Below are positions 3,305 to 46,579 of a DNA stretch of 64,000 nt, piece after piece. Every line of letters begins with the position of its first letter. Position 1 is the stretch's first letter. Position numbers and translations under genes: made by a program. The notes below the pieces were generated by a model. The model did no database searches. It saw only the letters and a list, made by a program, of their open reading frames with translations, and was not told where the DNA came from. Origin of the DNA: Candidatus Saccharimonadales bacterium (GTDB lineage: Bacteria; Patescibacteriota; Saccharimonadia; Saccharimonadales; 2-12-FULL-41-12); NCBI GenBank assembly GCA_025451045.1, contig JANWLD010000003.1:133690-197689 (forward strand). The letters are read 5' to 3'.

Positions 3305-5059
3305 TCATGTTTGTGCTTGTGCCGGTTTAATTTGGGCTTGGCTTTTGAGCTGTTGGGCTCTTTGGGCGCTCAAGCGTGGAAAGTTGATATAAAAGGTACT
3401 GCCTTCGCCCAGTTTACTTTCAGCCCAGATGTTACCGTTATAAAGCTCGACGATCTTCTTGCAGATGAACAGGCCGAGGCCGGTACCTCCGATGGCGCGG
3501 GTAGAAGAATTATCAACCCGGTAGAATTTTTGAAACAGATGCGGCACATCTTCTTCCGGTATGCCCGGGCCAGTGTCGGAAATCTTTATCTGCACTACCT
3601 GATCGTTGCCGGTAATCCCGATTATCACCTGCCCTTCAGTCGTATATTTGACGGCGTTGTCAAAAACATTAGTAATCACTTCGCGGACGCGGTCCGGATC
3701 GATATTGGTGTAGTAAAGCGGTTGTATGGTCTTCATGCCGCCGCTGGTATCGATGACGCCGGAAGAATTGGCGTTGGAGTTGATGACCAGCTCCATTTTC
3801 AGGCCTTTCTTCTCGGCGCTGAAACGCAGATCCTCAGCCAGCTGGGTGACGAAACCGCCCATCTCTATGATGTCCGGATGGCTGGTTAACCGGCCATCTT
3901 CGGCCTTGGCGCTGGTCAGTAAGTCCTGAAATAGTTTGCCCAAATGTTGAGTGCTCAGATGGGCTTTGGCCAGAAATTCCCGCGCGTTGTTGTCAATCTT
4001 GCTGACCTTGTCATTTAAGGCCAAGGCCAGGTAGCCCTCAATGGCGGCAACCGGCGTGCGCATCTCGTGGCTGGCGGTACTGATGAAGTCGGCTCGCTGT
4101 TGTTCCTCGGCTTTCTCTTTACTGACATCGCGGAAAACGGCTACAGCGCCAACCAGCTGGTTGTTCTTGGGTAAAATAACCGGCGAAATTGCCAATGAAA
4201 TGAATATATTTTTGTTCTGGCGGTTTATAAGCTGTAATGTTTCTTTAACCTGTTGCTGGCGGGTAATGACTGAATTAAACGGATGTTCACTTTCGGGGAT
4301 AACCGCACCGGATTTGGTGTCTTGTACCAGCTTCAAAACCGGCCGGACATCAAGGCCTAGCGCTTCGGCCACCGGCCAGCCAGTCAGCTGGGAGGCGGCG
4401 TTGTTTATCAGGGTTATTTTGCCTTGAGTGTCCACGGCTATTATTCCATCGGTAATTGATTGGACCAGTATTTCAGACTGCTGCTCATTGCTTTTAAGCA
4501 TTCCGGAAAGTTTGTTGACCTGCCTGGATGATTCGGTGATAAATTTATTCCGCCAGAAGAAATAAGCAATAATTAAAACGACCACTGCGCTAATTAGCAG
4601 GATGGTGTAGTGGGAGGTCAGGTTGGCGATGTCGAACTGTATCTCCATCAGCAGATAAATAAAAGTCACTAAAAGCGTACCGATAAGAATCGGTATACCG
4701 TACATCCCCTCCAAAAAGCCCACGCCAAGCCATGTAACCAAGTAGATAAGCAAGCCGCTGTTGGTCTGGTCCATTACATCAAGCAGCGGCAACACAATCA
4801 TGAACGAAGCGGCAAAGGTGGCCAAGGTCAGGCTAACGCGGGCAACGAACCAATAAACTATCAGCAGGTAAAGCAAGTTGATACCAGCCAAAACCAGCAA
4901 CGCGTCATTAAGGCCATATTTGTCTGCCAACTGGGTGTTATCAGTAAAACGGGTGAACAAATACCCGCCCAAAAGCAACGCGTTTACGGCGGTAAGGACT
5001 ATATAATGCAACCGGTACCAAAACTTCGGAACGTGCTCTAGCAACTCATCGAGAATCAT
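3305..5059 (-). CDS. Membrane sensor histidine kinase (multi-TM N-terminus, PAS-like, HisKA, HATPase_c)
   Basis: H-box SHEMRTP, N-box DNAVKYT, G-boxes DTGPGIP and GGTGLGL; hydrophobic N-terminal ~170 aa. Confidence 0.88.
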   Translation of the reverse strand: MILDELLEHVPKFWYRLHYIVLTAVNALLLGGYLFTRFTDNTQLADKYGLNDALLVLAGINLLYLLIVYWFVARVSLTLATFAASFMIVLPLLDVMDQTNSGLLIYLVTWLGVGFLEGMYGIPILIGTLLVTFIYLLMEIQFDIANLTSHYTILLISAVVVLIIAYFFWRNKFITESSRQVNKLSGMLKSNEQQSEILVQSITDGIIAVDTQGKITLINNAASQLTGWPVAEALGLDVRPVLKLVQDTKSGAVIPESEHPFNSVITRQQQVKETLQLINRQNKNIFISLAISPVILPKNNQLVGAVAVFRDVSKEKAEEQQRADFISTASHEMRTPVAAIEGYLALALNDKVSKIDNNAREFLAKAHLSTQHLGKLFQDLLTSAKAEDGRLTSHPDIIEMGGFVTQLAEDLRFSAEKKGLKMELVINSNANSSGVIDTSGGMKTIQPLYYTNIDPDRVREVITNVFDNAVKYTTEGQVIIGITGNDQVVQIKISDTGPGIPEEDVPHLFQKFYRVDNSSTRAIGGTGLGLFICKKIVELYNGNIWAESKLGEGSTFYINFPRLSAQRAQQLKSQAQIKPAQAQT

Positions 5060-5132: not shown

Positions 5133-5207
5133 GGTCGCATCGTCTAACGGCTAGGACACCAGGTTCTCATCCTGGCAATCGGGGTTCGATTCCCCGTGCG
5201 ATCACCA
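5133..5207 (+). tRNA. tRNA-Glu (anticodon CUC), CCA encoded
   Basis: Manual cloverleaf: acceptor GGTCGCA/TGCGATC, D-stem GTCT/GGAC, anticodon stem CCAGG/CCTGG with loop TTCTCAT, T-arm CGGGG-TTCGATT-CCCCG, discriminator A plus CCA. Confidence 0.9.
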
Positions 5208-5260
5208 CAAATCCAACGACGCTTCGCTCGTGACTACATAAATGTCCCCCGGACATTTAT

Positions 5261-5286
5261 GGGTTCGATTCCCCGTGCGATCACCA
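5261..5286 (+). repeat. 26-nt exact duplicate of the tRNA-Glu 3' end (T-arm half, acceptor, CCA)
   Basis: GGGTTCGATTCCCCGTGCGATCACCA occurs at 5182-5207 and again at 5261-5286; no matching 5' acceptor strand upstream of the second copy. Confidence 0.85.
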
Positions 5287-5294
5287 AGCTTGAC

Positions 5295-5828
5295 CTATAT
5301 TGGGTCTTTTTTGAGTTTGAGCCTGTAGCCTATGTAGCTTGATATTAAATGCATTAAGAACCAAACAATTATAATTAAAATGTATTGCTCAAGGCTTAAA
5401 ATTATAACGATAGAACTAAAAAGTAATCCGCCAACAATATAATCCAGCTGGTCAAACGGAAACCAGCTTTTACCCGAGTCCACATTAAGTTGCCTTTTGA
5501 CAAAGCTTTTGACCAAATCGCCGAATAACGCGCCAAAGCTTAGCAATACACCAAGCCAGATTGTCAGCTCGCTATAATCTAAGCCCCCTGCCGTTCCGCC
5601 GATTTGAGTCTGAAGATAAAATACCCAACTGCCCATCAATGTTCCTGCAACGATGCCGCGGATAGTTTTGTGCGGTCCGAGCAACGGCTTGCCCCGAAAT
5701 TTGCGGCCAAAGTCCAGCGGAGCGTTTAGCTCGCGTAAAACCGGTAGCTTAGCCGTGAAAATGGGCGTCATATTGGCGATACCGGCCGGTAAGAAAAACC
5801 ACAGACTGAACAAAAGGTCAGACATCAT
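5295..5828 (-). CDS. CarS-like (DUF46) CDP-archaeol synthase family membrane cytidylyltransferase
   Basis: 177-aa multi-TM protein; LPAGIANMTP...PLDFGRKF.GKPLLGPHKTIRG matches the family signature as I recall it; size fits; ATGA overlap with the upstream gene. Confidence 0.65.
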   Translation of the reverse strand: MMSDLLFSLWFFLPAGIANMTPIFTAKLPVLRELNAPLDFGRKFRGKPLLGPHKTIRGIVAGTLMGSWVFYLQTQIGGTAGGLDYSELTIWLGVLLSFGALFGDLVKSFVKRQLNVDSGKSWFPFDQLDYIVGGLLFSSIVIILSLEQYILIIIVWFLMHLISSYIGYRLKLKKDPI

Positions 5829-6448: not shown

Positions 6449-6656
6449 CTGACAATTGTAACACTGGCTTTTTAAAAGATGATACCCTTTGAGGCCTCTT
6501 TCAAAACATCCTCTACGCCCCAAAGCTGCCCTTCCTTGCTATAACTATCCAAAATTTTCTAACCATATCTAGAGATATGCTGATAAAATTGTTAAATGGT
6601 TACATCAAGAAATCATCAGCTTTGGAATCGAAGCAGAGTCTTGAAAGAGGCCTAGC

Positions 6657-7328
6657 ATGAAATATACCCTTCATACGGCCAAGATTGCCGATTGGGAGAA
6701 GTCCACGAAAGACCCGCATAATTTCTGGCAGAAAGTTGCCATCCGGTCGCATGGCGTTCTAACGCCCGCCAACATTGCCAGTGTAATAGGCGGCCTGCTG
6801 GCGCTTTACGGGCTTTGGATAATTTTAGACGGTGAAACAGTAAAAGGACTTGGTTTTATTGCTGCTGGCCGGATAGCTGATGTCGCCGACGGGATAATCG
6901 CCGAACGGACTAAGACCAAAAGTCCGCTTGGCGAAACAATTGATGCTACGGTGGATAAAATAGTCATAGGCGCAACGCTTTTGGTGCTGGGGGCGATGGA
7001 ATTGGTACCTTGGTTAATCATCGGTATAGTAGCGCTGCAAAACATTGCTAATGTGATTATCAGCGTTGTCGCTAAGCTCAGGGATAAGACCATTCATCCC
7101 TCGCGGCTCGGTAAAGTTTCGGCGGCTTTCAGCTGGGTGACGATTATCCTCTATCCGCTCGGCCAACATTTGCAGGAACAAGCCTATTACGGCATAGGTA
7201 GATTTCTGGTTGTGTTATCGCTGGCCAGCTTTGTCATTTATGTGGTTATGGGGCTTCAGGCCAGCTTGAGTTACGGATTGGTCATATACAAAGAGCCCGC
7301 CCGCCGGCTGTATAGATTATTTAGATAA
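6657..7328 (+). CDS. CDP-alcohol phosphatidyltransferase (second, divergent paralog)
   Basis: ADVADGIIAERTKTKSPLGETIDATVDK fits DxxDGxxAR...G...D...D; multi-TM. Confidence 0.8.
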   Translation: MKYTLHTAKIADWEKSTKDPHNFWQKVAIRSHGVLTPANIASVIGGLLALYGLWIILDGETVKGLGFIAAGRIADVADGIIAERTKTKSPLGETIDATVDKIVIGATLLVLGAMELVPWLIIGIVALQNIANVIISVVAKLRDKTIHPSRLGKVSAAFSWVTIILYPLGQHLQEQAYYGIGRFLVVLSLASFVIYVVMGLQASLSYGLVIYKEPARRLYRLFR

Positions 7329-11087: not shown

Positions 11088-12377
11088 CTAACTGTCTTTG
11101 AAGAGGAGGTCGAGGTATTTGGTGCCGGTGAATGGTATCTTCTGTTTGACGATATGTTTGCCTTTGAGTGTGTTGAGCGAGTGGATGACGAAGTTGCCAT
11201 AGCGTTGGTTGAGTTCGTCTACCGCTTCGGTTAGCCATTCCTGCTTATTTACCTCTTCAAACAGGCTGGGTTGATTTCTGGTAGTCGGCGTCAGGTTGTA
11301 ACATGTTATCCCCATGATGGTCAGGTTGGTATGCCGCGGACGAGCTTGGAAAAGCTTTAGCGCCCGAGCGTAAATTTCTTTGTCGGTATAAAAACTTTCT
11401 TTGTAGGTACGCTTGGCGTGCCAGCGCTCGCCGGTTGCTAATCCGGCCCAGACTACTATGCTGCGGGCATCAGCGCCGTTGTATCGTAGTTTCTTGCCGG
11501 TAGTTTCGCATAGATAGTGAAAGCGTGGCAGAAGCTCCTCGTCCTTGTTGGTTCGCTTATCCAGCGCGAATTGTCGGCCCACCTGCCCTAACCGTGTCGG
11601 TTCATCATCTACTTCATAACCGCGCAGGCGCTGATACCATTCATCACCAACGATTCCATGAAAGACTAATCTGCGCAGAGTATCGGCGCTAGCGTTTAAA
11701 AAATCCAGGGGCGTGAAGATATCGACAGAATTCAACCGGGCTTTGTAATGTCTGGCTATTCCCGGCAAGTCGGTCAGCTCCAGCGAATCATAAATTTCCA
11801 TAAGATTTGTGTGGTCGATGGTGTCCAGCCCGTCCGGTTTGTGAAGGCTGGCTGCCGTTTTGGCCAAAAAGCGATTCTGGCCGATACCGATATTGACCTT
11901 TATCCAATGCCCCAGCTCGCTTTTAAGCCGGGCTTTTATCCCCAGGGCAATTTCATGAAGCGGACGCGGATTAACTATGTTTCGAGTGCCATGAAAATCA
12001 ATTAACCCCTCATCTATACTGCGCATTTTTACGTTCGGCGAATAGCTTTTCATAATATTTGCCAGCTTTTGGTGAACATAAAGATATTTGGGCGGGTCGG
12101 TTTCAAGCAGTACCAGCTCTGGTACGAGTTGTCTGGCTTCAATAAGTCCCATGCCGACTTTCACCCCGCGGTTCTTGGCTTCGTAGCTGGCGGCGATAAT
12201 GCAGCAATTTTTGGAAATGCGGTTGGTCATGCCAAGCGGTTTTCCCCGCAAGCTCGGCCTTGCCTGCTGTTCGGTCATAGCGAACGCGCTGTTGAGATCG
12301 ATATGCATGATTTGTGCCGGCTCTCTACTAATCGGCAGATGCCCCCATTTCAAGTCTTGCGAGCGCTGGGTTTTCAT
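11088..12377 (-). CDS. Y-family (DinB/ImpB-type) translesion DNA polymerase
   Basis: IMHIDLNSAFAMTEQ and SIDEGLIDF catalytic motifs; start set at MKTQRS, which restores an ATGA overlap with the upstream ORF once the inserted element is removed (track ORF extends to 12407). Confidence 0.85.
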   Translation of the reverse strand: MKTQRSQDLKWGHLPISREPAQIMHIDLNSAFAMTEQQARPSLRGKPLGMTNRISKNCCIIAASYEAKNRGVKVGMGLIEARQLVPELVLLETDPPKYLYVHQKLANIMKSYSPNVKMRSIDEGLIDFHGTRNIVNPRPLHEIALGIKARLKSELGHWIKVNIGIGQNRFLAKTAASLHKPDGLDTIDHTNLMEIYDSLELTDLPGIARHYKARLNSVDIFTPLDFLNASADTLRRLVFHGIVGDEWYQRLRGYEVDDEPTRLGQVGRQFALDKRTNKDEELLPRFHYLCETTGKKLRYNGADARSIVVWAGLATGERWHAKRTYKESFYTDKEIYARALKLFQARPRHTNLTIMGITCYNLTPTTRNQPSLFEEVNKQEWLTEAVDELNQRYGNFVIHSLNTLKGKHIVKQKIPFTGTKYLDLLFKDS

Positions 12378-12443
12378 CCCGTAGTGAGCCTCCAAGTTGC
12401 TACGCAAAAGTCCAACGAAAGTTCTTGGAGATCTACTACGGGA
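12378..12443 (-). mobile_element. Palindromic insertion element, copy C (MITE/PATE-like)
   Basis: Minus strand reads TCCCGTAGTAGATC...GGCTCACTACGGG, flanked by 5-bp direct repeat TTCAT (12373-12377, 12444-12448). Stem is 10 bp, then an AGAU/GCUC internal loop, then 7 bp (CTCCAAG/CTTGGAG). Confidence 0.55.
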
Positions 12444-12444
12444 T

Positions 12445-12720
12445 TCATGACTCGCCCTCGATTATTGTTACCAGCTTCCAAGTAAGCATCTCGGCGTCGA
12501 ATTCCAGCCGGTAATCATTTGCCCCGTCGCTCATGTCAAAAACATGTACCATTCGCTGTCCCTTAGTCGTCGGGTGGCGCAGACCAAGCTCGGTAAAGGC
12601 TATTTCCTTTTTGCCCCACCGCATCTTAACAGGCATTATCATATAAGCCGGATCCCCGTGGGATGCGAACCGGGTTATGACTTCTACCCTGTCGTTTATC
12701 TCTATAAAATTCATATACAA
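12445..12720 (-). CDS. Hypothetical 91-aa protein, first gene of the polymerase cassette
   Basis: ORF directly upstream of and co-oriented with the polymerase; originally overlapped its start (ATGA); no motif recognised. Confidence 0.55.
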   Translation of the reverse strand: MYMNFIEINDRVEVITRFASHGDPAYMIMPVKMRWGKKEIAFTELGLRHPTTKGQRMVHVFDMSDGANDYRLEFDAEMLTWKLVTIIEGES

Positions 12721-28264: not shown

Positions 28265-28287
28265 ATTTTCTTAGGTTAATTACAAGC

Positions 28288-28347
28288 TTACCCGCTGGTC
28301 TCCGGGGCCACTACTACTGCGATTGCGAGTATTAATGATTTGCTCAT
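28288..28347 (-). CDS. Leader peptide MSKSLILAIAVVVAPETSG
   Basis: 20-codon ORF; 7 of 19 residues are Leu/Ile/Val, plus 4 Ala; AGCGGG-UA-AGCU around the stop codon is complementary to the terminator 5' arm. Confidence 0.65.
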   Translation of the reverse strand: MSKSLILAIAVVVAPETSG

Positions 28348-28353
28348 AATTCC

Positions 28354-28382
28354 ACCTTACGCCTCTCTGTTAATGTTGTCAA
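28354..28382 (-). promoter_or_regulatory. Putative promoter of the Leu/Ile/Val leader, with its -35 overlapping the upstream stop codon
   Basis: TTGACA (28377-28382, contains the TGA stop of the 528-aa gene), 17-nt spacer, TAAGGT (28354-28359), 6 nt, ATG. Confidence 0.4.
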
Positions 28383-30130: not shown

Positions 30131-31981
30131 TTATTTATAATATGAACTTTGGAACATCTTTGTCATGGATCTTTTATGTATTTCTCTTTGGTGGCGCCAT
30201 TCAGCCCTTTTTATAAGGTTAACTGCTTTGATATAGGCGTGGATGGTGGCGTTGTTCAGGCTGGTGCCTTCGCTGTATGCAGTTACGGTCACGCCTTTAT
30301 AAGCCACCTTGACTATAGCTCCTGCTTCAGAATCGGAGCCGCTATGAAGGGCAAAAGGTTTCGCATCTTCAATATCCCCGCTAAAGTCAAGTATCTTACC
30401 GATGGCGATTCTGGCGGCATCTACTTCCCCCTTGTTGCTCGTGGCTTTTTCTGTTCGTCTCTTGCCGTCTATATTTAAAGTTATTTTGGCATAGTCATCA
30501 TTTTCCTTCCCGTGGGATTTTGCGTGCAGTTCACTATCTGTCATTTTTATAGCGTCGTCCTGCCCGTGGAATAACTGTTCAAGCGCGAAGGCCTCGATTT
30601 CTAGATCGGTTATGGGCTGTTTCCTTGTTTTTGAAACGGTGTTGGAGTTGATAACTATTTGTTCTATATCAAGCTTAGCTACATCAAAGGCTAGATCGGT
30701 TAATCTTTTCACGGTTTCTTCCGAATTAATTACCAATTCTGACTTGTAGATGTCCGTACCGCCAAGATTGGCCCGACCAGCTTTACCTTGGTACTTCCCA
30801 TCTTCCAATATAGCCGCGACGGGATGTCCGAAGCCTCGGTTGTCTACAGCGGCGTAGGTCGCGGCCCCTCCTTTATTAATAGCATCCGAATGAACGCCCG
30901 AGCGGTGAACTATAGTATGGAAACCGGTGACGGGGGTATCGGGGTCAAGCTCCAATCCGGCGGCGTCTAATAGGCCTTCTGCTACGGCTTTCAACTTGGT
31001 TGTATCCACCGTAATTACTACGGGCGCGGCAAACTCATCCCGATCGGTCAGAACGTTGCGTACATAAGGCGCTAAATACATATTGCCGTTGCGTTCGCCT
31101 TTGCCGGGAGCGCTGACTGACTCCACTTGAAAGTCCGGTATAGCTGAACTTCTTGCTAACGCGGCGTTTATTACCGCATGCATTGAAGATATGGTGTTTT
31201 GAACGGCTCTCTGGCCATCATCGTGGTTGTGGCTCGATATCGTAATCTCTTCCACCCTGCCTTCGTCAATCATCCAGTTTGTCGCGGCGTCGAATATTTT
31301 GGCCATGCGGATAGGACTGGCAGCTCCTAGAGTGTCGGGCAGGTTAATTACATTTATATCTTCCTGCAGTGCGGTTCTGACTGCTCTTTCTAAGAAGACC
31401 ATATCAGTTGTAGAAGCTGCTTCGCAGGAAAACTCTACCGTACCATCAGGTCCTATTGCATCTCGGGCTCTGCGTATACTGTCCACGCCCATTTCAAGTA
31501 CTTCTTCCCTGGTCATGGCAGGGTGTTTTGCGCGCATGTGTTCTTCGGCGGTGGCGATAAATACATGTATTCCGGGTCTGTCAGCTTCTTCTACGGCTCT
31601 GGCTGCTTGCTCAATTCCTGCCGGATTAGCCAGAGTAAGTCCGGTAATGACAGGCGTCCAGATTTTTGGCGGCAAGTCTACCCAGTTACCATTTTCAATA
31701 GACTTCGGTAATATCTGGTACTGGGTTTGCCCGACTGTTCTGGCTACTTCAGCTATTTCTTCTTCATCGCCCATACTGGCTGGAAAGCCAGCTTCGATTA
31801 CGTCTACTCCCTGGCTTACTATCAACTCCGCCAGCTCGACTTTTGAGCCTTCAGGGAATTGATTCTCCTGAGGCAAAGACTGCGCCCCGTCGCGTAGCGT
31901 AGTGTCGAATATCTCTATTTTCATTGCCGCCGGATCAAATTCCGGTTTAGAAGGCAGTGTTTCTACTTGGCTTTGTATCAT
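30131..31981 (-). CDS. LeuA-family 2-isopropylmalate synthase-like enzyme, 616 aa
   Basis: FDTTLRDGAQS, SSHNHDDG (HxH) and a C-terminal LeuA-dimer-type domain; preceded by a Leu-rich leader. Confidence 0.85.
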   Translation of the reverse strand: MIQSQVETLPSKPEFDPAAMKIEIFDTTLRDGAQSLPQENQFPEGSKVELAELIVSQGVDVIEAGFPASMGDEEEIAEVARTVGQTQYQILPKSIENGNWVDLPPKIWTPVITGLTLANPAGIEQAARAVEEADRPGIHVFIATAEEHMRAKHPAMTREEVLEMGVDSIRRARDAIGPDGTVEFSCEAASTTDMVFLERAVRTALQEDINVINLPDTLGAASPIRMAKIFDAATNWMIDEGRVEEITISSHNHDDGQRAVQNTISSMHAVINAALARSSAIPDFQVESVSAPGKGERNGNMYLAPYVRNVLTDRDEFAAPVVITVDTTKLKAVAEGLLDAAGLELDPDTPVTGFHTIVHRSGVHSDAINKGGAATYAAVDNRGFGHPVAAILEDGKYQGKAGRANLGGTDIYKSELVINSEETVKRLTDLAFDVAKLDIEQIVINSNTVSKTRKQPITDLEIEAFALEQLFHGQDDAIKMTDSELHAKSHGKENDDYAKITLNIDGKRRTEKATSNKGEVDAARIAIGKILDFSGDIEDAKPFALHSGSDSEAGAIVKVAYKGVTVTAYSEGTSLNNATIHAYIKAVNLIKRAEWRHQREIHKRSMTKMFQSSYYK

Positions 31982-31993
31982 TTTTTCTCCATT

Positions 31994-32024
31994 AAATTAA
32001 AAATAGGCTTCTTGGTTGAAGCCT
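31994..32024 (-). terminator. Attenuator terminator (Leu leader)
   Basis: Minus strand: AGGCUUC-AACCAA-GAAGCCU, then AUUUUUAAUUU; SD GGAGA lies ~15 nt downstream. Confidence 0.7.
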
Positions 32025-32063
32025 GATGCTTTGGGCTGTACTGTGGCTCCGATACCCTCGGAA

Positions 32064-32141
32064 CTAGGCTTCAACCATGCTGAAGCACAGCCCTTTAAGG
32101 CTGAGTAGGAGGTCCAAGTGCTTCGCTATGTATGAAACCAT
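32064..32141 (-). CDS. Leu-rich leader peptide MVSYIAKHLDLLLSLKGLCFSMVEA
   Basis: 26-codon ORF; 6 Leu, clustered as LDLLLSLKGL; its last codons GGUUGAAGCCU(AG) are an 11-nt perfect complement of the terminator 5' arm plus loop. Confidence 0.72.
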   Translation of the reverse strand: MVSYIAKHLDLLLSLKGLCFSMVEA

Positions 32142-32150
32142 ATCAAAATA

Positions 32151-32179
32151 ACGATAACCCGCTTTAGGTCTTTTGTCAA
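32151..32179 (-). promoter_or_regulatory. Putative promoter of the Leu leader
   Basis: TTGACA (32174-32179), 17-nt spacer, TATCGT (32151-32156), 9 nt, ATG. Confidence 0.5.
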
Positions 32180-32180
32180 A

Positions 32181-32273
32181 CCCCGTAGTGAGCTTTCGTG
32201 ACTCTCTCGGCCAAGTGGCCGGGAAACTTTAGCCGCCCCTTTGGGCGGCTAAACTCGAAAGTCTACTACAGGG
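32181..32273 (-). mobile_element. Palindromic insertion element, copy A
   Basis: Minus strand reads CCCTGTAGTAGAC...GCTCACTACGGGG, flanked by 5-bp direct repeat TCAAA (32176-32180, 32274-32278). Inner stem TTTCG/CGAAA; the interior carries the hairpin TTTAGCCGCCC-AAAG-GGGCGGCTAAA (32228-32253). Confidence 0.55.
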
Positions 32274-32987
32274 TCAAACCAGTTTGTATTCACCGTCTGA
32301 TTCTTCAAGATGATAAACTTGGCTTTTGCGCTCAATGATTATCGGCCACTTTTTGGCTTTTGCATGTTCAAGCAGGGTTTTGTTAGGGTTGAAGGCTATG
32401 GGTTTCTCAACCAGTTCCAACATTGGTATATCACCCTCGGTATCGCCGACTCCTATGCTTCCTTCCAGCGACAAACCTTTCGCGTCAATAATTTTTTGCA
32501 AGGTCTTGCCCTTCGCCCCTGCCGGGAAGCTGGCATAGCCGCCGAATTTATCGCCAGACTTTTTGTATTTGGTACCGGTCCATTCGTCAAAACCGTAATA
32601 TTTGGAAACTTTTTCAACTATTTCGTACTGCGAGCCGGAAATCGCTATCAGATAGTATCCTTTGTCTTTCAGCTCAGCTACCAAGTCGCGCGTGTAGGTA
32701 TAGACTTGGTCTTTATATTTTGCGAATACTTTGTCGACTGCTTTAGAAAATACGGATATATTCAGCTGGCTTACGTGCTTGTCGAATATCTCAATCGATT
32801 TATTCGCGTAGTTCTCGTAGGCTTTTTCCGAGCTGCGGGCTTTCCAGGAATCAAACAGGTTATGTACTTCCCGGTAATCTTCATTATCTATCAGTCCTTC
32901 GATTGCCAGTTCATAGAAAACGGCCATGAAAAGCTGCCAGCGGATAAGCGTTCCGTCAAAATCAAACACCGCAAACCTTTTGCTCAT
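32274..32987 (-). CDS. HAD-IB family hydrolase (phosphoserine phosphatase-like)
   Basis: FDFDGTL motif I, S/T motif II region, and GVGDTEGDIPML motif IV. Confidence 0.78.
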   Translation of the reverse strand: MSKRFAVFDFDGTLIRWQLFMAVFYELAIEGLIDNEDYREVHNLFDSWKARSSEKAYENYANKSIEIFDKHVSQLNISVFSKAVDKVFAKYKDQVYTYTRDLVAELKDKGYYLIAISGSQYEIVEKVSKYYGFDEWTGTKYKKSGDKFGGYASFPAGAKGKTLQKIIDAKGLSLEGSIGVGDTEGDIPMLELVEKPIAFNPNKTLLEHAKAKKWPIIIERKSQVYHLEESDGEYKLV

Positions 32988-38356: not shown

Positions 38357-38414
38357 TTAGTGTGAATGTCAGATAAATAAATTATAGCGAAAAAAGGTGT
38401 AAAAAACACCTTGC

Positions 38415-38486
38415 CCCGTAGTAGACTTTTCATTGGTCAAACCGGTAATTTTGAGGCCAAAATTATATGAAAAGCTCACTACGGGG
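38415..38486 (+). mobile_element. Palindromic insertion element, copy B
   Basis: Plus strand reads CCCGTAGTAGAC...GCTCACTACGGGG, flanked by 5-bp direct repeat CTTGC (38410-38414, 38487-38491). Inner stem TTTTCAT/ATGAAAA. Confidence 0.55.
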
Positions 38487-38603
38487 CTTGCAAGCAGTAG
38501 ACAGAACAACGTAAAATATTATTTAACTGGCCTCACCCTCTCGCGCTTTAACGCTTGCGTTTGCCGTCGGGCTGGTTTTAGACAACCTTAATAAACAAAA
38601 CCC

Positions 38604-44439: not shown

Positions 44440-45468
44440 ATGACTGACAAGACTTCCGACTACAAAATTGCGACTCTTGGGAGCCATTCCGCGCTTCAGA
44501 TACTAAAAGGCGCGCGCGACGAAGGCTTTAAAACAATGATAATCGCCCTCAAGGGACGGACTCAGCCGTATGAGTCTTTCAAAGTTGCCGATGAGATAAT
44601 TGAGCTGGAATCATTCAAGGACCTCCCCGGTTTGGAACAGCGGCTGATTGATGAGAATGTGATTTTAGTACCGCACGGCTCATTTTTTAGCGCCTATACC
44701 GATTTGGAGGCATTAAACCAATCCGACGCGCTTTACTTCGGTAATAAAAAGATTTTGCCATGGGAACAAAGCCGGACTAAACAGCGTGAATGGCTGAAAA
44801 AAGCCGGACTGACCCTGCCGAAGATTTATGATAAGCCCGAAGATATCGACGGCCCTTGCATCATCAAGTTTTATGGTGCTGGCGGCGGCAAAGGATACTT
44901 TTTGGCCAAGACCGCCGAAGAGTTTTATGAAAAAATCAAACCTCATAAAGACAAGAGATACATAATCCAGCAATACATCGTCGGAGCGCCGCTGTATGTA
45001 CATTACTTCTACTCGCCGCTAACAGGCGAGCTCGAAGTGATGAGCATGGACAAGCGTTACGAGACCAACGTCGATTCCATCGGGCGTATAAGCGCCAAAG
45101 ACCAACTGGATTTGAATATCGAAAGCTCTTACAACATCATGGGCAACCTGCCGGTGGTAGTACGCGAATCGATGTTGCCGCAGATATTTTCTATGGGTGA
45201 AGAGGTCGTTAAGGTTTCCAAGAAACTGGAGCCGGGCGGACTCACCGGACCGTTTTGCCTGGAAACAATAGTCACGCCGGAACTGGAATTTTATGTATTT
45301 GAAATTTCCGCCCGCATCGTCGCGGGGACTAATCCGTACATCAACGGCTCGCCCTATACTGATCTTCGTTACAAAGAACCAATGAGTACCGGTCGCCGCG
45401 TAGCACGAGAGATAAAGCTAGCATTAGAAAGTGATGAAATAGAAAAGGTTTTGATAAATGGCAATTGA
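44440..45468 (+). CDS. purP: Archaeal-type 5-formaminoimidazole-4-carboxamide ribonucleotide (FAICAR) synthetase, PurP family
   Basis: IATLGSHSALQILKGARDEGFKT N-terminal signature, then an ATP-grasp region. Confidence 0.78.
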   Translation: MTDKTSDYKIATLGSHSALQILKGARDEGFKTMIIALKGRTQPYESFKVADEIIELESFKDLPGLEQRLIDENVILVPHGSFFSAYTDLEALNQSDALYFGNKKILPWEQSRTKQREWLKKAGLTLPKIYDKPEDIDGPCIIKFYGAGGGKGYFLAKTAEEFYEKIKPHKDKRYIIQQYIVGAPLYVHYFYSPLTGELEVMSMDKRYETNVDSIGRISAKDQLDLNIESSYNIMGNLPVVVRESMLPQIFSMGEEVVKVSKKLEPGGLTGPFCLETIVTPELEFYVFEISARIVAGTNPYINGSPYTDLRYKEPMSTGRRVAREIKLALESDEIEKVLINGN

Positions 45469-46579
45469 CAGCAGCAAACTACTAGACGGTTATGACTTGA
45501 ATAACATTCGCATTGCTACGCTCGGCGGACATAGCGCGCTGGACGTATGCCGCGGCGCGAAGAGCGAAGGGTTCGAAACGGTCGTTGTAGCCCAAAAAGA
45601 CCGCGCCAAGACTTTTACCGATTATTACAAAACCCGCGGTAACAAAGGCTGTGTCGACCATGTCATCTTGGTAGATGATTTCGCGGACGTAGCCAAGCCG
45701 GAAATCCAGAAACAACTACGCGAATTAAACGCGGTATTCGTACATAGCCGTTACTTTTGGGTTTACTGCGATATCAACCAGATTGAAAATGATTTTAACG
45801 TGCCGATTATCGGCAACCGGGTGCTGGTGCGCAAAGAAGAGCGCGACGAAGAAAAAAACCAGTACTTCCTACTCAAAGAAGCCGGTATAAATATCCCGAA
45901 ACAGTTTGCTGATCCAAAAGACATTGACCGTCAGGTTATCGTCAAGGCTGCCGAAGCGAACCGTAAGTATGAGCGGGCCTTTTTCTTGGTGCATAGCTAT
46001 GAAGACTATCTGGCCGAGTCCAAGAAACGTTTGGACAGCGGCGCTATAGATAAGCAGTCTTTAGACAATGCGATTATCGAAGAATTTGTTCTTGGTCCGC
46101 AATTGAACTTGAATTTCTTTTATTCGCCAGTTACGGATGAGCTGGAGCTACTGGGAACTGACACTCGCCGCCAGACTAATATAGATGGTCTCTTGCGCCT
46201 GACCGCAACTGAGCAGACTGAAGTATTGAAGCACGTCCGGCCGCAATATATCGAGAACGGACATATAGCCGTCACTATAAAAGAATCTTTGCTGGAAAAG
46301 GCATATGAAGCCGGCGAGAAGTTTGTTGAGTCGGTTGCCAAGCATTATCCGCCCGGTATGATTGGCCCGTTTGCCCTCCAAGGCGCGATTACCCCCGGCC
46401 CGCCAAAAGAAAAATTGTTTGTTTTTGACGTGAGCATGCGCATTCCCGGCAGTCCCGGTACAATGTTTACGCCCTACTCCGGCTATATGTACGGTGAAAA
46501 TATGAGCGTTGGCAAGCGCCTGGCCATGGAAGTCAAACAAGCCATAGCCGAAAATAAATTAGATCTATTAATTACTTAA
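45458..46579 (+). CDS. PurP-family paralog (second ATP-grasp formate-dependent ligase-like gene)
   Basis: IATLGGHSALDVCRGAKSEGFET; overlaps the first purP by 11 nt. Confidence 0.72.
   Translation: MAIDSSKLLDGYDLNNIRIATLGGHSALDVCRGAKSEGFETVVVAQKDRAKTFTDYYKTRGNKGCVDHVILVDDFADVAKPEIQKQLRELNAVFVHSRYFWVYCDINQIENDFNVPIIGNRVLVRKEERDEEKNQYFLLKEAGINIPKQFADPKDIDRQVIVKAAEANRKYERAFFLVHSYEDYLAESKKRLDSGAIDKQSLDNAIIEEFVLGPQLNLNFFYSPVTDELELLGTDTRRQTNIDGLLRLTATEQTEVLKHVRPQYIENGHIAVTIKESLLEKAYEAGEKFVESVAKHYPPGMIGPFALQGAITPGPPKEKLFVFDVSMRIPGSPGTMFTPYSGYMYGENMSVGKRLAMEVKQAIAENKLDLLIT

Follow-up and report, generated by a model that had tools for sequence, protein, structure and literature searches.

An inserted palindromic element in a Saccharimonadales genome belongs to a large family whose full-length relatives encode a GIY-YIG nuclease

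The 64,000-nt stretch of a Candidatus Saccharimonadales bacterium genome analysed here (contig JANWLD010000003.1, positions 133,690-197,689; hereafter the window) carries a non-coding palindromic element of 93 nt, copy A, between a HAD-family gene and the promoter of a Leu-rich leader peptide. Copy A is probably a non-autonomous member, comparable to MITEs (miniature transposable elements with inverted repeats), of a large family in which relatives with an open reading frame (ORF) for a GIY-YIG nuclease mobilise the short forms in trans. About 170 distinct members were found in public genomes and metagenomes, mainly in Saccharibacteria and other Patescibacteria. The family is apparently undescribed so far; a literature search by sequence, taxon and keywords returned no description of it or of prokaryotic GIY-YIG elements bounded by terminal inverted repeats (TIRs) and target-site duplications (TSDs).

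Copy A runs from 32273 to 32181 on the minus strand, with the 'AG arm' (CCCTGTAGTAGACTTTCGAG) first and the 'GA arm' last, and its junctions read ctggTTTGA/CCCTGTAGTAGACTTTCGAG...CACGAAAGCTCACTACGGGG/TTTGAcaaaag. A preliminary description of this DNA had proposed an insertion flanked by duplicated TTTGA, and the sequence, the ends and the duplication match its letters exactly. The left TTTGA (32274-32278, minus strand) contains the stop codon TGA of the HAD gene (32276-32274), and the TTGA inside the right TTTGA (32176-32180, minus strand) forms bases 1-4 of the -35 hexamer of the Leu-leader promoter. Through the duplication the left copy keeps the HAD stop and the right copy keeps the -35 box, so that both genes retain their signals. 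The HAD-family gene (32274-32987, minus strand) shows a Pfam HAD domain. The promoter, TTGACA-17-TATCGT (32151-32179, minus strand; -35 at 32179-32174, -10 at 32156-32151), is intact right after copy A and is followed by a Leu-rich leader peptide ORF of 25 codons (MVSYIAKHLDLLLSLKGLCFSMVEA; 32064-32141, minus strand), the Leu attenuator (32005-32024, minus strand), which is a canonical terminator with hairpin and T-run, and a leuA-like gene (30131-31981).

The contigs of HAD orthologues were retrieved and compared at the HAD-leuA junction, the comparison that had been suggested for finding empty sites. Four relatives have the uninterrupted sequence GGTTTGACAAA without an element, namely L142 (HAD 88% identical), L118 (77%), L119 (77%) and L120 (74%). 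In all four, the conserved Leu-leader ORF follows about 35 nt after the empty site, and then a leuA-like gene. The window junction equals this empty site plus 93 nt plus a second TTTGA. The earlier prediction that removal of the element and one TTTGA recreates a TTGACA box overlapping the HAD stop is thus seen as such in these relatives. Three further close HAD orthologues (P0002, P0004 and P0005) have another gene downstream and are uninformative in this respect. Since four relatives keep the intact site without the element, copy A is, on this comparison of sequences, a recent insertion, which postdates the split from the relatives with an 88% identical HAD. The comparison promoter named in the preliminary description (28382-28377) also has the arrangement given there, with the TGA stop of the upstream ORF inside TTGACA. 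The window holds two peptide-leader attenuators in tandem operons, one with an Ile/Val/Ala-rich leader (MSKSLILAIAVVVAPETSG; 28286-28382) and one with the Leu-rich leader (32005-32179); in both, the -35 box TTGACA overlaps the TGA of the upstream gene, and each stands ahead of an HMGL-like (leuA/cimA-type) synthase.

Written with its flanks on the minus strand, copy A reads ctggTTTGA / CCCTGTAGTAGAC TTTCGAG (TTTAGCCGCCC AAAG GGGCGGCTAAA) GTT (TCCCGGCC ACTT GGCCGAGAGA) GT CACGAAA GCTCACTACGGGG / TTTGAcaaaag. Its TIRs (CCCTGTAGTAGACTTTCGAG and CCCCGTAGTGAGCTTTCGTG) are conserved in about 170 family copies. The AG-arm repeat CCCT GTAGT AGAC TTTCGAG (32254-32273, minus strand) is composed of stem P1, an asymmetric core and stem P2, and faces the GA-arm repeat CACGAAA GCTC ACTAC GGGG (32181-32200, minus strand; CCCCGTAGTGAGCTTTCGTG when read inwards); both are defined by the family alignment, the pair counts and the table of ends. 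Between them lie two interior hairpins. P3 (TTTAGCCGCCC-AAAG-GGGCGGCTAAA; 32228-32253, minus strand) is a variable module, and P4 (TTCCCGGCC-ACTT-GGCCGAGAGA; 32203-32226, minus strand) is a module that also occurs in the elements of L004, L087, L045, L199, L228 and L260. Folded as either strand, the whole element forms a three-way junction with an energy of -53 to -57 kcal/mol, and comparison with dinucleotide shuffles gives z about -8. The duplication of 5 nt is longer than the family norm of 4 nt, although the repeat could equally be read as TTGA with one extra T.

A mismatch-tolerant search of the window with each of the 13-nt ends found both ends together at only two further places, which gives three copies in 64 kb. 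Copy B (73 nt; 38414-38486, plus strand) is flanked by CTTG (38410-38413 and 38487-38490) and lies between tRNA-Ser(GGA) and an ABC-transporter operon, in the -35 box of the operon's promoter (TTGCAA-18-TAAAAT). At the place where AACACCTTG, the element and CTTGCAAG stand in the window, two relatives with an 88-90% identical ATPase, L146 and L147, have the empty site AACACCTTGCAAC. Copy C (67 nt, TCCCGTAGTAGAT...GCTCACTACGGGA; 12377-12443, minus strand) is flanked by TGAA (12444-12447 and 12373-12376); the left TGAA contains the stop TGA of the ORF 12445-12720, and a dinB-like gene lies downstream. The three copies are alike in their ends only. Their interiors are unrelated, and even the stem extensions differ in sequence (TTTCG/CGAAA, TTTTCAT/ATGAAAA and CTCCAAG/CTTGGAG).

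A scan of one genome per species with the pattern GTAGTAGAY-N40-70-GCTCACTAC returned at least 116 loci. About half of these belong to metagenome-assembled genomes (MAGs) of Candidatus Saccharibacteria or other Patescibacteria and have the full architecture, that is a 4-nt repeat, CCNN GTAGTAGAC TTTCGNG, a single hairpin or a pair of them, CNCGAAA GCTCACTAC NNGG and a second copy of the 4-nt repeat; the remaining matches (Psychrobacter, Vibrio and others) lack this architecture and served as negative controls. Among the genome-scan matches listed, 47 are non-redundant members of 67-94 nt, almost all from Saccharibacteria/Patescibacteria MAGs, several of which are multicopy. An independent scan of metagenome contigs, in which four core positions were left free, added 109 non-redundant elements. 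Exact 4-nt flanking repeats are present in 31/47 members of the genome set and in 72/107 of the metagenome set, where chance predicts 1 in 256, while matches without CC..GG termini show such a repeat in only 5/105 cases. Four of the 47 have a 5-nt repeat, as copy A does, and one has a 3-nt repeat.

The family end comprises about 20 nt, CCNN-GTAGT-(AG or GA)-NN plus a 7-bp extension (motif CCNNGTAGT(AG/GA)). Core subfamilies are AGAC/GCTC, to which the window copies belong, AGAA/TTTC and AGAT/ATTC, and all share the AG/GA asymmetry, with GTAGTAG at one end and GTAGTGA, read inwards, at the other. The family as a whole has the features by which MITEs are recognised: TIRs, TSDs (with empty sites for copies A and B), and small non-coding dispersed copies. 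Elements of L036 and L188 are 94% identical and sit at unrelated loci with different flanking repeats (CCAA and CAAA, respectively), from which it follows that the repeat is made anew from the target at each insertion. Elements that are 88-94% identical at unrelated loci carry different repeats, which led to the rejection of a 'cohesive-end' model that has the element take its flanking 4-mer along as in restriction and ligation. A search of the IMG/VR viral collection with the family pattern gave 21 matches, all of them chance matches without CC..GG ends or a P2 stem, and hence no sign of a phage vector.

Several loci show more complex arrangements. Tandem elements sharing a single 4-nt repeat were observed in L196 (8487-8876; a short element and a GIY-YIG element with TATG in common) and in L237 (2542-2848; two longer elements of 171 and 132 nt with one TATA in common), and it seems that a duplicated target is re-used there to build arrays. 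In L053 (4625-4717), from a MAG labelled Spirochaetia, a smaller second copy of the end motifs (CCAGTAGTAGAGCGCTACGCTCTCACTACCGG) is nested in the interior, which is either a nested insertion or a sign of a mis-binned contig of the candidate phyla radiation (CPR). A Nomurabacteria MAG (L050) has three copies within 8 kb (2782-2851, 3424-3493 and 6591-6660), two of them with near-identical flanks, GGGTTTG/element/TTTGACAAAG, just upstream of a -35-like TTGACA; this pair suggests a segmental duplication that took in an element.

To assess pairing, both ends of 48 members were aligned and their pairs counted. Paired cells made up 94%, compared with 83% in column shuffles and 30-45% in controls with slid partners, and changes on both sides were seen in 11/20 pairs. 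The covariation score of 0.331 (shuffles 0.118) was reached by 0/500 shuffles. The informative pairs are the NN of CCNN/NNGG (AU 14, GC 12, CG 8) and the 7-bp P2 stem; the search pattern itself prescribed the central GTAGTAGAC/GCTCACTAC positions, which are uninformative for pairing in the genome set. The interiors of short elements consist of one or two unrelated hairpins (two in 39/48 folds), so the whole is a near-perfect stem or a three-way junction. The strict retention of the AG/GA mismatch shows that sequence-specific constraint acts on the ends. The bottom strand folds better in 40/48 copies, a bias that comes entirely from the conserved core (G.U/A.C/G.U).

The insertion sites are not random with respect to gene signals. 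Reconstructed sites in the Saccharibacteria set are mostly TTGA/TCAA, CTTG/CAAG and TTTA/TAAA, and 11/34 sites have the repeat on the -35 hexamer of a complete promoter-like motif, compared with a background of 3.0% at non-ORF positions of the same loci. These overlaps are always in register 0 or +1, and elements occur in both orientations relative to the promoter. Nearly all elements (45/48) are intergenic, in 12 divergent, 19 co-directional and 4 convergent contexts. The metagenome set revealed a second strong target, TATG/CATA, in 16/72 repeats. Among the NATG/CATN repeats of both sets together, 18/24 have an ATG that starts a frame of 80 codons or more, compared with 20% for background NATG. 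One TATG subfamily has unrelated flanks in 10/12 copies, which identifies these as independent events. The target differs by subfamily, with the -35 TTGA preferred in the window's subfamily and the start-codon TATG in another.

The exact register speaks for an insertion machinery with a sequence preference; in these dense genomes, selection would afterwards filter out insertions elsewhere. Element-encoded guides, as in IS608, were considered as a cause of the subfamily-specific targets, but no element position matching the target was found, and a lineage-specific preference of the nuclease is the simpler explanation. The idea that short elements at start codons are read through in frame was rejected, as adding 4 to their lengths gives multiples of 3 in some cases but not in others. 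At several start-codon targets a -10-like box lies just 5-8 nt upstream of the ATG (L281, 285-320, with TATACT-8 nt-TATG; upstream flanks of L208 and L179), which suggests that in these CPR lineages the genes hit have a very short leader or none.

A search of the metagenome loci for unpaired or distant ends brought up full-length relatives of about 290-320 nt. They have homologous ends, the same 4-nt duplication (3 nt in L233) and a single ORF, whose product is a GIY-YIG nuclease of 88-104 amino acids from the UPF0213/SLX1 branch. Four independent cases share this design and differ in end subtype. The element of L196 (8564-8876; 313 nt, ends CCAGGTAGTGAAAATTCGAT...ATCGAATTTCTACTACCTGG) has TATG on both sides and directly follows the short element with which it shares one TATG; its ORF contains a GIY-YIG domain (Pfam PF01541, E = 7.5e-17). 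L271 (about 1204-1515) and L281 (about 309-617) are likewise flanked by TATG, and L233 (about 4700-4985) by ATG. In every case the frame of the nuclease ORF extends back through the terminal repeat to the flanking ATG on the side of the GA arm, and the other ATG starts a host gene. This host gene belongs to the AMMECR1 family in L271, with its ATG 21 nt after the nuclease stop, and is alaS-like in L281, where the nuclease stop TGA overlaps the host ATG. The contigs L271-L280 represent one locus found in many samples. The protein P0338, found on 24 contigs, likewise turned out to be one locus repeated across samples and no evidence of multiple genomic copies.

Database homologues show the same association. 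A translated terminal repeat is present near the N-terminus of 105/120 closest homologues, and 75/120 begin with MPGSENS (ATG CCA GGT AGT GAA AAT TC.); in their sources they go by the name of GIY-YIG nucleases and are assigned to Patescibacteria, Parcubacteria or Nealsonbacteria. A profile of 43 members matched UPF0213 (E = 2.6e-13 and 3e-11) and SLX1 (E = 3e-7 to 4e-6) better than I-TevI (E = 0.002), and the catalytic Tyr, Arg, His and Glu, along with a Gly, are invariant in the alignment. The wider UPF0213-like protein family comprises 7,635 clusters at 50% identity. At their ends the ORF-bearing elements can be aligned with the short ones, copies A-C among them, and the window's subfamily agrees with them at 15/20 positions. 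A truncated GIY-YIG ORF, with the same CCAAG before it, lies directly next to an AGAC/GCTC short element in L232. L175 (3969-4280) has a GIY-YIG ORF between related but different ends (CCCTGTGGAATG...ATTCCACAAGG), preceded by TTGA and its own extended -10 (TGATAATAT), on a contig that also carries an AGAC/GCTC short element; this ORF may belong to a sister family of elements.

Because the nuclease is the only gene ever found between family ends, it is the candidate for the mobilising enzyme. The 4-nt duplication (5 nt in copy A) would imply a 4-nt staggered cut of the target followed by fill-in. In the case of copy A, the element entered GGTTTGACAAA, where the HAD stop overlaps the -35 box of the Leu leader. 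In ORF-bearing forms, the nuclease would be translated from the duplicated host ATG through the terminal repeat, and it would mobilise the short hairpin forms in trans by recognising their folded or cruciform ends with the fixed mismatch.

Several observations weigh against mobilisation by the nuclease. To our knowledge, GIY-YIG enzymes are hydrolytic nucleases, and we know of none that joins strands; pasting-in with a 4-nt duplication is unexplained by such chemistry, and the nuclease gene could be cargo and not the mobiliser. In the window's own subfamily, the link to the nuclease rests on the end homology (15/20) and the decayed case of L232. No clean ORF-bearing element with AGAC/GCTC ends was found in the loci searched, about 0.37 Mb of Saccharibacteria loci with this subfamily contain no GIY-YIG gene, and neither does the 64-kb window, where Pfam scans of about 60 ORFs also revealed no transposase, integrase or reverse transcriptase. 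The pairing data are ambiguous as well. Template switching 'perfects' quasi-palindromes and yields compensatory pairs without selection, so part of the compensatory pairing might have this origin. The element interiors show no strand bias in folding (34 versus 43 GU pairs, p = 0.06), so that the form under selection may be single-stranded DNA, a cruciform or RNA.

The best of the alternatives, though an unlikely one, is that copy A is an ordinary MITE, a deletion derivative of a conventional DDE insertion sequence (IS) mobilised in trans, with the GIY-YIG ORF as a passenger or secondary capture. TIRs, a fixed short duplication, small size, many copies and intergenic position are classical MITE features; duplications of 4-5 nt are typical of DDE chemistry, and IS1380, IS701 and IS5 are IS families with CC termini and 4-5-bp duplications that could have supplied the ends. 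The lack of known strand transfer by GIY-YIG nucleases favours this alternative too. It is opposed by the gene content. The window has no gene for a DDE or other transposase. The loci of the genome scan contain no long IS-like elements or lone ends, and about 1.6 Mb of family-bearing loci (not whole genomes), with about 170 short copies, contain isolated lone-end motifs only and no end pair at IS-like spacing. The only ORF that family ends enclose is instead GIY-YIG, in four independent elements that differ in end subtype, and the terminal repeat lies within the reading frame in most close homologues (the 105/120 above), which argues for long co-evolution and not for capture.

If the nuclease is indeed the mobiliser, the family may represent, as a tentative proposal, an undescribed class of prokaryotic DNA transposons whose sole protein is a structure-specific SLX1/YhbQ-like GIY-YIG nuclease of about 95 residues. 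The nuclease would recognise the element's own folded or cruciform ends, with the conserved AG/GA mismatch marking strand or end, and would cut start codons or -35 boxes with a 4-nt stagger. An autonomous element would borrow ATG, promoter and ribosome-loading signals from the host and hand translation back at the duplicated ATG. Non-coding derivatives would stay near-perfect hairpins, in which the flush stem rejoins the flanks and hides the insertion almost completely from transcription and translation signals. The chance that the entire family is such a new class is substantial. It would then stand outside the DDE, HUH, serine and tyrosine enzymes, would be among the smallest autonomous DNA elements known and could provide a function for part of the UPF0213-like family.

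Bacterial MITEs and palindromic repeats (Correia/NEMIS, RUP, ERIC, bcr1 of Bacillus cereus, Rickettsia RPE) resemble the family in small size, TIRs, a short duplication, multicopy intergenic occurrence and stable stems; bcr1 and ERIC show conservation of structure, and some MITEs affect the expression of neighbouring genes. In contrast to these, the present family conserves no interior but only its 20-nt ends and the pairing, has a fixed AG/GA asymmetry and a precise register in -35 hexamers or on start codons, and has ORF-bearing relatives that encode a GIY-YIG nuclease and not a DDE transposase. GIY-YIG homing endonuclease genes (I-TevI, T4 Seg proteins) likewise have a GIY-YIG nuclease as sole protein and graft its expression on host signals. 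However, they recognise a long specific site, recombine into the cognate empty allele and have neither inverted repeats nor a duplication, whereas the family shows many unrelated 4-nt targets, de novo duplication, TIRs and abundant non-coding derivatives. The element nuclease lacks a DNA-binding extension, and its profile is closer to UPF0213/SLX1 than to I-TevI. Its closest solved relatives are UPF0213 (YhbQ-like) and SLX1, with conserved catalytic residues. SLX1 cuts branched and stem-loop DNA, and by analogy such cutting would fit element ends folded as a hairpin or cruciform. In their hosts YhbQ and SLX1 serve in repair, and we know of neither in any mobile element. GIY-YIG-encoding insertions in CPR rRNA genes, which are not introns and unlike homing elements, are presented as unexplained in a paper (PMC11270868) that describes no ends, duplications or non-coding derivatives for them; they may be the same kind of element.

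CPR genomes are tiny, gene-dense and thought to be poor in mobile elements, yet this family of 70-320 nt recurs across MAGs and metagenome contigs. It has moved recently and picks the few harmless positions, a -35 box or start codon that is regenerated by the duplication. The elements may break assemblies, and they give rise to spurious short ORFs; gene callers start the nuclease ORF inside the terminal repeat. Annotation of promoters, leaders and small RNAs in CPR genomes should mask the elements.

The preliminary description had further proposed that the interior hairpin P3 is terminator-like and may insulate the HAD/xth operon from the Leu attenuator. This part found no support. The hairpins lack a T-run, with AAAGTTTCCC following P3 and TTTGACAAAAG following the closing stem of copy A, whereas the two attenuators of the genome are canonical hairpin-plus-T-run terminators. 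A scan of 31900-32400 for intrinsic terminators found only the Leu attenuator (32024-32005) and left the hairpins of copy A unscored. The family is moreover promoter-proximal, with only 4/35 convergent contexts, a distribution opposite to that of terminators. As the stop and the promoter are kept, the hairpins have no T-runs and the family is distributed in this way, copy A is most likely a tolerated selfish insertion. Co-option as a transcriptional insulator or terminator, or as a stabiliser of mRNA 3' ends, is accordingly improbable. Its appeal lies in the very stable fold, in base pairing kept throughout the family and in the position of copy A exactly between an upstream stop and a downstream promoter, a place without any structure in the empty-site relatives. 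Yet the insertion is recent, close relatives manage without the element, members are rare between convergent genes and enriched at promoters and start codons, and their interiors are unrelated from copy to copy. Judging from the sequence, HAD/xth transcripts that read through would now bear a very stable 93-nt hairpin, and possible effects of copy A would concern read-through, the sequence upstream of the -35 box or mRNA 3' ends.

A very remote alternative is a single-strand hairpin element of the REP/BIME-like or IS200/IS605-type (PATE) kind, for which a Y1 HUH transposase would be responsible, or else an attC site of an integron. The family resembles REP and attC sites in GTAG near the stem foot, conserved unpaired hairpin bases and a variable loop region. 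IS200/IS605 with PATE and REP/RAYT systems also share hairpin ends with important unpaired bases and short non-autonomous palindromic derivatives. These systems differ in using a Y1 HUH transposase and a fixed tetra- or pentanucleotide neighbour without target duplication, while 4-nt duplications are the rule here. In addition, GTAG is inside the stem and is not a 5' tag as in the 20-40-nt REP palindromes, there is no RYYYAAC/GTTRRRY box and no cassette array, copies are solitary and intergenic with a TSD, and the window contains no RAYT, TnpA, Y1 transposase or IntI. The reading that copy A is no insertion but belongs to the leuA leader from ancestral times, as a structured region with a regulatory role or as a small RNA gene, which the strong fold and covariation might recall, is refuted for practical purposes by four orthologous junctions that precisely lack the element and have one TTTGA left, by copies at unrelated loci in both orientations and by Rfam, which gave no match at gathering or E-value threshold (only three tRNAs in the window at gathering score, and chance-level matches around copy A at E <= 10).

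Three further features of the window were noted. Two adjacent DUF1246/DUF1297 genes (44440-46579) are PurP-like, of the archaeal type of purine synthesis, and a gene at 5295-5828 is CarS-like (CDP-archaeol synthase family), in a genome that is otherwise Saccharibacteria-like. The tRNA-Glu gene (5133-5207) has the last 26 nt of its 3' end repeated exactly, 53 nt further on (5182-5207 = 5261-5286), with a small hairpin (ATAAATGTCCCCCGGACATTTAT) in between; this arrangement (5133-5286) looks like an attL/attR remnant, the scar of an element once integrated in the tRNA gene.

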